This document shows positions 58,630-58,687 of a stretch of DNA of 64,000 nt, in pieces. Made by a program: the position numbers and the translations under genes. The number at the start of each line of letters is the position of its first letter. The stretch's first letter is position 1. The DNA is from Escherichia coli. Lineage in GTDB: Bacteria; Pseudomonadota; Gammaproteobacteria; Enterobacterales; Enterobacteriaceae. The notes beneath the pieces are model-generated. The model saw nothing but the letters and a program-made list of their open reading frames with translations, searched no databases and was not told the origin of the DNA. The DNA lies in NCBI RefSeq assembly GCF_013122565.1, contig NZ_CP053258.1; one strand, given 5' to 3'.

Positions 58630-58645
58630 CTGTATAAAACCACAG
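58630..58645 (+). promoter_or_regulatory. LexA (SOS) box upstream of polB
   Basis: ctgtataaaaccacag matches the CTGT-N8-ACAG SOS-box consensus; polB (dinA) is a known SOS gene. Confidence 0.7.
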
Positions 58646-58658
58646 CCAATCAAATGAA

Positions 58659-58687
58659 ACCAGGCTATAATCAAGCCTGGTTTTTTT
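58659..58687 (+). terminator. hairpin with T-run downstream of araD
   Basis: Stem accaggct / agcctggt with 7-nt loop followed by ttttttt; likely the araBAD terminator, lying in the polB leader. Confidence 0.55.

Follow-up and report, generated by a model that had tools for sequence, protein, structure and literature searches.

The promoters of the SOS regulon differ in where the LexA box is placed: in the recA type it lies between the -35 and -10 elements, in other SOS promoters it lies over the start site, and in the promoter of polB (dinA), the gene for DNA polymerase II, it lies over the -35 region. The polB promoter of Escherichia coli K-12 is the closest described system to the one considered here. 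A tiling array study of UV-treated cells listed its box as the SOS box of a UV-induced gene (Thomassen et al. 2010, PMC3009722), a cloned polB promoter fragment confers UV-inducible GFP (the authors state that their fragments cover the whole intergenic region), and a 'middle' induction timing has been reported for polB. In the literature Salmonella polB, too, is a gene of the SOS regulon. In K-12 polB follows araD, the final gene of the araBAD operon, and the 1986 paper in Gene by Lee and colleagues that presented the araBAD sequence reportedly described a rho-independent terminator after araD. The same stretch of K-12 (65787-65835) appears in a different role among the leader attenuators predicted by the Merino-Yanofsky approach, where it is entered for polB as a 'translational attenuator/terminator' (Mendoza-Vargas et al. 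2009, Table S6, PMC2760140).

The window studied here, by which we mean the whole stretch of 64,000 nucleotides that was analysed, has the same gene order. On its plus strand the list of open reading frames gives araB (54603-56303), araA (56314-57816), araD (L-ribulose-5-phosphate 4-epimerase, 57931-58626) as the final gene of araBAD, and polB (DNA polymerase II, 783 aa, 58701-61052), which begins with GTG; the names araD and polB were taken from the RefSeq annotation of matching E. coli loci. The araD stop codon TAA (58624-58626) is followed by a second TAA (58627-58629), and the junction, in which 74 nt separate the two genes, reads TAA TAA, CTGTATAAAACCACAG, CCAATCAAATG, a hairpin, TTTT, ATGGATTTTCAGC and GTG. 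The GTG start is kept in nearly all related loci, and a GGA at 58690-58692 provides the sole Shine-Dalgarno-like bases 5' of it. An out-of-frame ATG 13 nt 5' of the GTG opens a 63-codon frame that overlaps polB (58688-58879, plus strand). An ATG is found again at this position in many genera, but the length of the frame is not kept and falls to two codons (ATG GGA TAA) in Enterobacter; the bases conserved around the ATG are probably a Shine-Dalgarno-like GGA or GAG.

K-12 and the window agree in the araD-polB order, the 16-bp core of the box, the hairpin stem, the spacings and the GTG start. From the box through the hairpin to the leader they differ by three substitutions, one in a variable spacer, one after the T-run and one in the -10 hexamer (TATACT in K-12, TATAAT here), none of them in the box or the stem; one more substitution falls in the second stop codon, immediately ahead of the box. 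The public record already contains every element, from the SOS box and UV induction to the start site and the terminator-like hairpin, and the junction is an ordinary E. coli araD-polB junction. The window is not that of a typical E. coli and probably belongs to another Escherichia species or clade: over the part of the locus tested (56201-61300) identity to the representatives of E. coli, E. whittamii and E. albertii is only about 93%, and the best match among some 5,400 E. coli genomes reaches 98.4% identity, over 501 nt.

The original prediction had placed a LexA box directly after the araD stop, and this is indeed where it is found. Its core CTGTATAAAACCACAG, a CTG-N10-CAG inverted repeat with an A/T-rich centre, occupies 58630-58645 within the 20-mer AACTGTATAAAACCACAGCC at 58628-58647, an operator with no strand of its own that was identified from its sequence, its identity to K-12, its listing in the literature and its conservation. 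Relative to the transcription start transferred from K-12 (see below) the box covers about -50 to -31, with its centre at about -40.5, and overlaps the polB promoter. By motif statistics it is unremarkable. The window holds two copies of CTGT-N8-ACAG where 0.57 would be expected, and two or more copies turn up in 13% of shuffles. We also built a LexA weight matrix from 17 other E. coli LexA sites in the table of Thomassen et al. 2010 (PMC3009722), by which the polB box scores 10.6 bits, under every training site (17 bits or more); it is the second-best match in the 64 kb and falls inside the range of the best chance matches, so that within the window the matrix alone does not raise it above chance. 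The box is credible because it is conserved at a fixed distance to the -10 and listed in the literature, not by its sequence alone. Such a score fits a weak operator, which would in turn fit the 'middle' timing of polB induction. The top matrix score in the window (12.8 bits) belongs to 38063-38082, ATCCGTTTTTGTATCCAGTA, which has no left CTG and is probably a chance match. The second CTGT-N8-ACAG match, at 47916-47931, has a G+C-rich centre.

Downstream of the box, the hexamer TATAAT at 58666-58671 (plus strand) is a full sigma-70 consensus -10 element, recognised from its sequence, its conservation and the mapped K-12 start, and just ahead of it stand G at -14 and C at -13. At a 17-bp spacer the -35 position is taken by CAGCCA (58643-58648, plus strand; read from the sequence), which matches TTGACA at three of six positions, overlaps the right half of the LexA box and falls short of a -35 element. 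Indeed, a consensus promoter scan that needs four of six matches at -35 did not call the polB promoter, its -35 being too poor. With other SOS promoters whose box overlaps the -35, polB shares a single CTG-N10-CAG operator placed to exclude RNA polymerase, but it differs from them in that its -35 is essentially absent (3/6), which leaves it dependent on a consensus -10 together with the G at -14 and the C at -13. The K-12 form of this element, CTATACT with G at -14 and C at -13, resembles the -10 regions preferred by sigma-S. RpoS dependence of polB has been reported, as cited in a review, and a sigma-S-like -10 fits this report.

Three published data sets bear on where polB transcription begins. 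Kim et al. 2012 (Table S1, PMC3415461) give a K-12 polB start at 65803 on the minus strand with a 23-nt 5' UTR, and their upstream 51-mer spans the LexA box to ...GCTATACTCAAGCCT. By the conversion K-12 = 124481 - x, this position corresponds to a T at 58678 on the plus strand of the window, which follows the -10 by 7 nt, precedes the GTG by 23 nt and is the fifth base of the 3' arm of the hairpin. Mendoza-Vargas et al. 2009 (PMC2760140) likewise place the polB start at -23 and assign to it the -10 box ccagGCTATACTcaag / GCTATACT and no -35. In the tiling array the UV-upregulated polB transcript has its 5' edge 46 nt beyond the motif's first base, at about 58675 in the window (Thomassen et al. 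2010, PMC3009722). This edge is about 3 nt 5' of 58678, at probe-level resolution. In the same table an offset of about 3 nt is also apparent for recA, measured from what we take to be the recA start site. Both the Kim and the Mendoza-Vargas starts rest on two reads each, from uninduced cells, and a Cappable-seq supplement had no entry near K-12 65803; the start-site evidence is modest, yet concordant and independent. Kim et al. 2012 (PMC3415461) assign a second two-read start to polB, at K-12 65946 or about 58535 on the plus strand of the window, inside araD and 166 nt 5' of the GTG. Transcripts from there would run into the hairpin, and this start may be noise.

The original prediction had reasoned that polB transcription must begin downstream of the hairpin or read through it; this choice was incomplete, since in a third arrangement, which the transferred start indicates, transcription begins at 58678, inside the 3' arm, and there is nothing to read through. 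The prediction had also named the finding that would speak against it, a start beyond 58687 driven by a promoter that has no relation to the LexA box. We regard such a start, downstream of the whole hairpin, as extremely unlikely. No support for it was found, and between T-run and GTG there are just 13 nt. The mapped 5' UTR is 23 nt; besides TATAAT at 58666-58671 there is no -10-like hexamer that could serve it, and the fixed 20-nt gap between box and -10 (see below) argues that these two form one unit. The K-12 start corresponds to 58678, and its promoter is tied to the box.

The stable hairpin and T-run that had been noted between the box and the polB GTG were recovered at 58656/58657-58687. 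The hairpin (58656-58684, plus strand; assigned from its fold and from the pattern of araD adjacency) pairs AAACCAGGCT with AGCCTGGTTT around the loop ATAATCA over 58657-58683, with an optional G-U pair between 58656 and 58684. Its 5' arm thus runs from 58656 or 58657 to 58666, the 7-nt loop from 58667 to 58673 and the 3' arm from 58674 to 58683 or 58684, and the stem has 10-11 bp, five of them G-C. The fold has an energy of -16.1 kcal/mol against -4.2 +/- 2.0 for shuffled sequences (z = -5.95), and none of 200 shuffles was as good. A tract of seven T follows at 58681-58687 (plus strand), seen in the sequence and retained as a T-rich tail in the related loci that carry the hairpin; its bases are +4 to +10 of the polB mRNA. 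The hairpin begins 31 nt after the araD stop, which is terminator geometry, and the G+C-rich stem, short loop and seven T are as expected of rho-independent terminators; the structure is stable, stands downstream of a co-oriented unit and tracks araD adjacency. Where it differs is in the double use of its loop and 3' arm, which also supply the -10 and the start site for the gene that follows, TATAAT occupying the loop and the last (closing) pair of the stem.

A simple terminator scan called this hairpin on the minus strand only, and the miss on the plus strand was probably caused by greedy extension of the stem into the T-run. On the minus strand the hairpin is terminator-like as well (-15.4 kcal/mol), with an interrupted T-run, and no convergent gene there needs it. 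Both arms contain Dcm methylation sites (CCAGG and CCTGG). An Rfam search of 57900-59200 at E <= 1 returned no family. The 3'-end (Term-seq) tables of Adams 2021, whose coverage does not extend to arabinose-grown cells, list no araD end, and the matches in a literature search for a measurement of the araD terminator were strain genotypes only.

To see which parts of the junction belong together, we compared 80 Enterobacteriaceae loci with PolB N-termini, one genome per species and the window counted among them. In all 77 related loci whose upstream sequence is long enough for the test, araD is encoded 5' of polB and co-oriented with it. TATAAT or TATACT is present wherever the upstream sequence reaches far enough (79/80), and the gap from the end of the box to the -10 is exactly 20 nt in 75 of the 80; among the exceptions, the box of one genus stands nearer to the -10 by 10 nt, or one helical turn, and the boxes of two loci are degenerate. 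Eleven nucleotides between box and -10 vary freely. A gap that stays fixed although the spacer varies implies that the box and the -10 are one unit.

The terminator behaves differently. We called a terminator where a stem of -8 kcal/mol or better had at least four G-C pairs and at least five of the 8 nt that follow the G-C core were T, and grouped loci as 'araD adjacent' (araD ending no more than 230 nt before polB) or 'inserted' (0.3-1.5 kb between the two). By these definitions 50-52 of the 52 adjacent loci carry the 3' arm with its T-run, the two misses being counting artefacts or a weaker T-run, as against 6 of 26 loci with an insertion (Fisher p = 2e-11, with loci treated without regard to shared ancestry). 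The promoter core is retained in both groups. Salmonella, Phytobacter, Pseudocitrobacter and Superficieibacter are without the hairpin, and all of them keep the box, AACCAGG(C/T) and TATAAT. As the hairpin tracks araD adjacency and the promoter core does not, the hairpin would belong to araBAD and the box and -10 to polB. On this comparison the 5' arm AACCAGGC is linked to the promoter and conserved everywhere, and the 3' arm with the T-run is an addition linked to araBAD.

An alternative account holds that the hairpin is no working terminator: both arms would be conserved as double-stranded promoter DNA, from the spacer through the discriminator to the initially transcribed region, and the araBAD transcripts would end by other means. 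It draws on the invariance of the stem core, in which no compensatory changes are seen, and on the conservation of the 5' arm even where the 3' arm is absent. Indeed, a covariation test over 61 loci gave no informative signal, since the core is invariant, and the few one-sided changes mostly preserve pairing as wobbles. The promoter, however, does not need the 3' arm, which is absent in the four hairpin-less genera, and polB is still an SOS gene in Salmonella; moreover, the 3' arm and T-run follow araD adjacency in the proportions given above, and the geometry and energy are those of a textbook intrinsic terminator. This makes the account quite improbable in our view. Geometry and adjacency pattern make the araBAD terminator the best reading of the hairpin, in agreement with the original prediction.

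The remaining question is whether the hairpin could act within the polB leader. If the polB promoter coincided with the LexA box, as it might by using the TATAAA at 58633-58638 inside it, or lay 5' of the box, the hairpin would be a transcriptional or translational attenuator for polB transcripts to overcome. There is a hairpin with a T-run between box and GTG, as such an attenuator would have; the Table S6 entry of Mendoza-Vargas et al. 2009 (PMC2760140) corresponds to 58646-58694 in the window; and the minimum-energy fold of 58620-58703 pairs CAC at 58641-58643 with the GUG start codon. Yet both mapped starts and the UV transcript edge fall inside the 3' arm, and no usable -35 stands ahead of TATAAA. 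The listed attenuator begins 5' of the transcript, upstream of the start site mapped in the very same paper, so it cannot form in the polB mRNA, and the entry is probably an artefact. Nor does the upstream RNA appear to mask the ribosome-binding site: across 52 loci the unpaired probability from the Shine-Dalgarno bases to the GUG was 0.449 in read-through RNA, 0.457 in the gene's own transcript and 0.452 with the upstream part shuffled (p = 0.6-0.8). The lineages without the hairpin keep the same box and -10, and RNA from 58678 onward has no unusual structure (z = +1.19). Attenuation is thus very unlikely. A leader attenuator was rejected as a candidate, with the 5' arm (58656-58666) 5' of the start at 58678 and no conserved masking of the ribosome-binding site, and no attenuation mechanism is needed or supported.

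We consider it very probable that two independent signals, the intrinsic terminator of araBAD and the LexA-repressed promoter of polB, share these 60 bp, and that the polB mRNA starts inside the 3' arm. A polymerase arriving from araD would copy both arms and the T-run and terminate at about 58684-58687. A polymerase serving polB would engage the TATAAT that sits in the loop of the hairpin, where the -35 is poor and overlaps the right half of the LexA box, and start at about 58678, giving a transcript that begins UGGUUUUUUUAUGGAUUUUCAGC-GUG and lacks the 5' arm; without that arm, the terminator could not form in the polB mRNA. LexA bound at about -50 to -31 would be expected, from SOS biology, to block the binding of polymerase at a promoter with almost no -35, and RecA-stimulated self-cleavage of LexA, as established for the SOS response, would free the promoter. 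The 3' arm and the T-run would be what completes the terminator, retained where transcription leaving araD enters the polB promoter directly. With the -10 in the loop and the start in the 3' arm, the apparent paradox of a terminator in the polB leader is resolved. Compact intergenic regions may assemble overlapping signals in this way, here a universal promoter core and a terminator half found mainly where araD abuts.

A further possibility is that the overlap is itself functional, heavy arabinose-induced transcription either occluding the polB promoter or sweeping LexA off a weak operator. Every polymerase completing araBAD would then travel across the LexA operator and the -10 of polB, and terminate only at +7 to +10 of polB. 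If this were true, expression of polB, and with it Pol II, would be coupled to arabinose catabolism, and loss of the 3' arm where a gene separates araD from polB would amount to release from the coupling. We think this improbable, and favour two signals that are independent and merely overlap. The araD-polB finding clarifies a textbook locus and opens no new biology. Its small additions to the record are the comparative split between a promoter half and a terminator half and the probable artefact in Table S6. Before any hairpin located between operator and start codon is put forward as an attenuator, its position should be compared with that of the mapped start.

The inserts between araD and polB vary in content. 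Representative ones hold a co-oriented DUF218 gene, an opposite-strand DUF4751 gene (in Salmonella) or an open reading frame with a restriction-enzyme N-terminal domain, and three more representative inserts had no Pfam match. The DUF218-family gene lies between araD and polB in several genera (loci L022, L024, L044, L045 and L081), about 50-120 nt 5' of polB. Its 3' end directly adjoins the polB LexA box or runs into it, and the boxes there are nearer consensus (CTGTACAAAAAGTCAGTA). In Salmonella (L017, L021) and some Citrobacter an apparent remnant of the 3' end of this gene is found beside the box. Siccibacter turicensis (L078) has its LexA box 10 nt from the -10, not 20, and its hairpin is rebuilt from other sequence (CAAACCAGC...GCTGGTTTG), with one core base pair fewer and no T-run.
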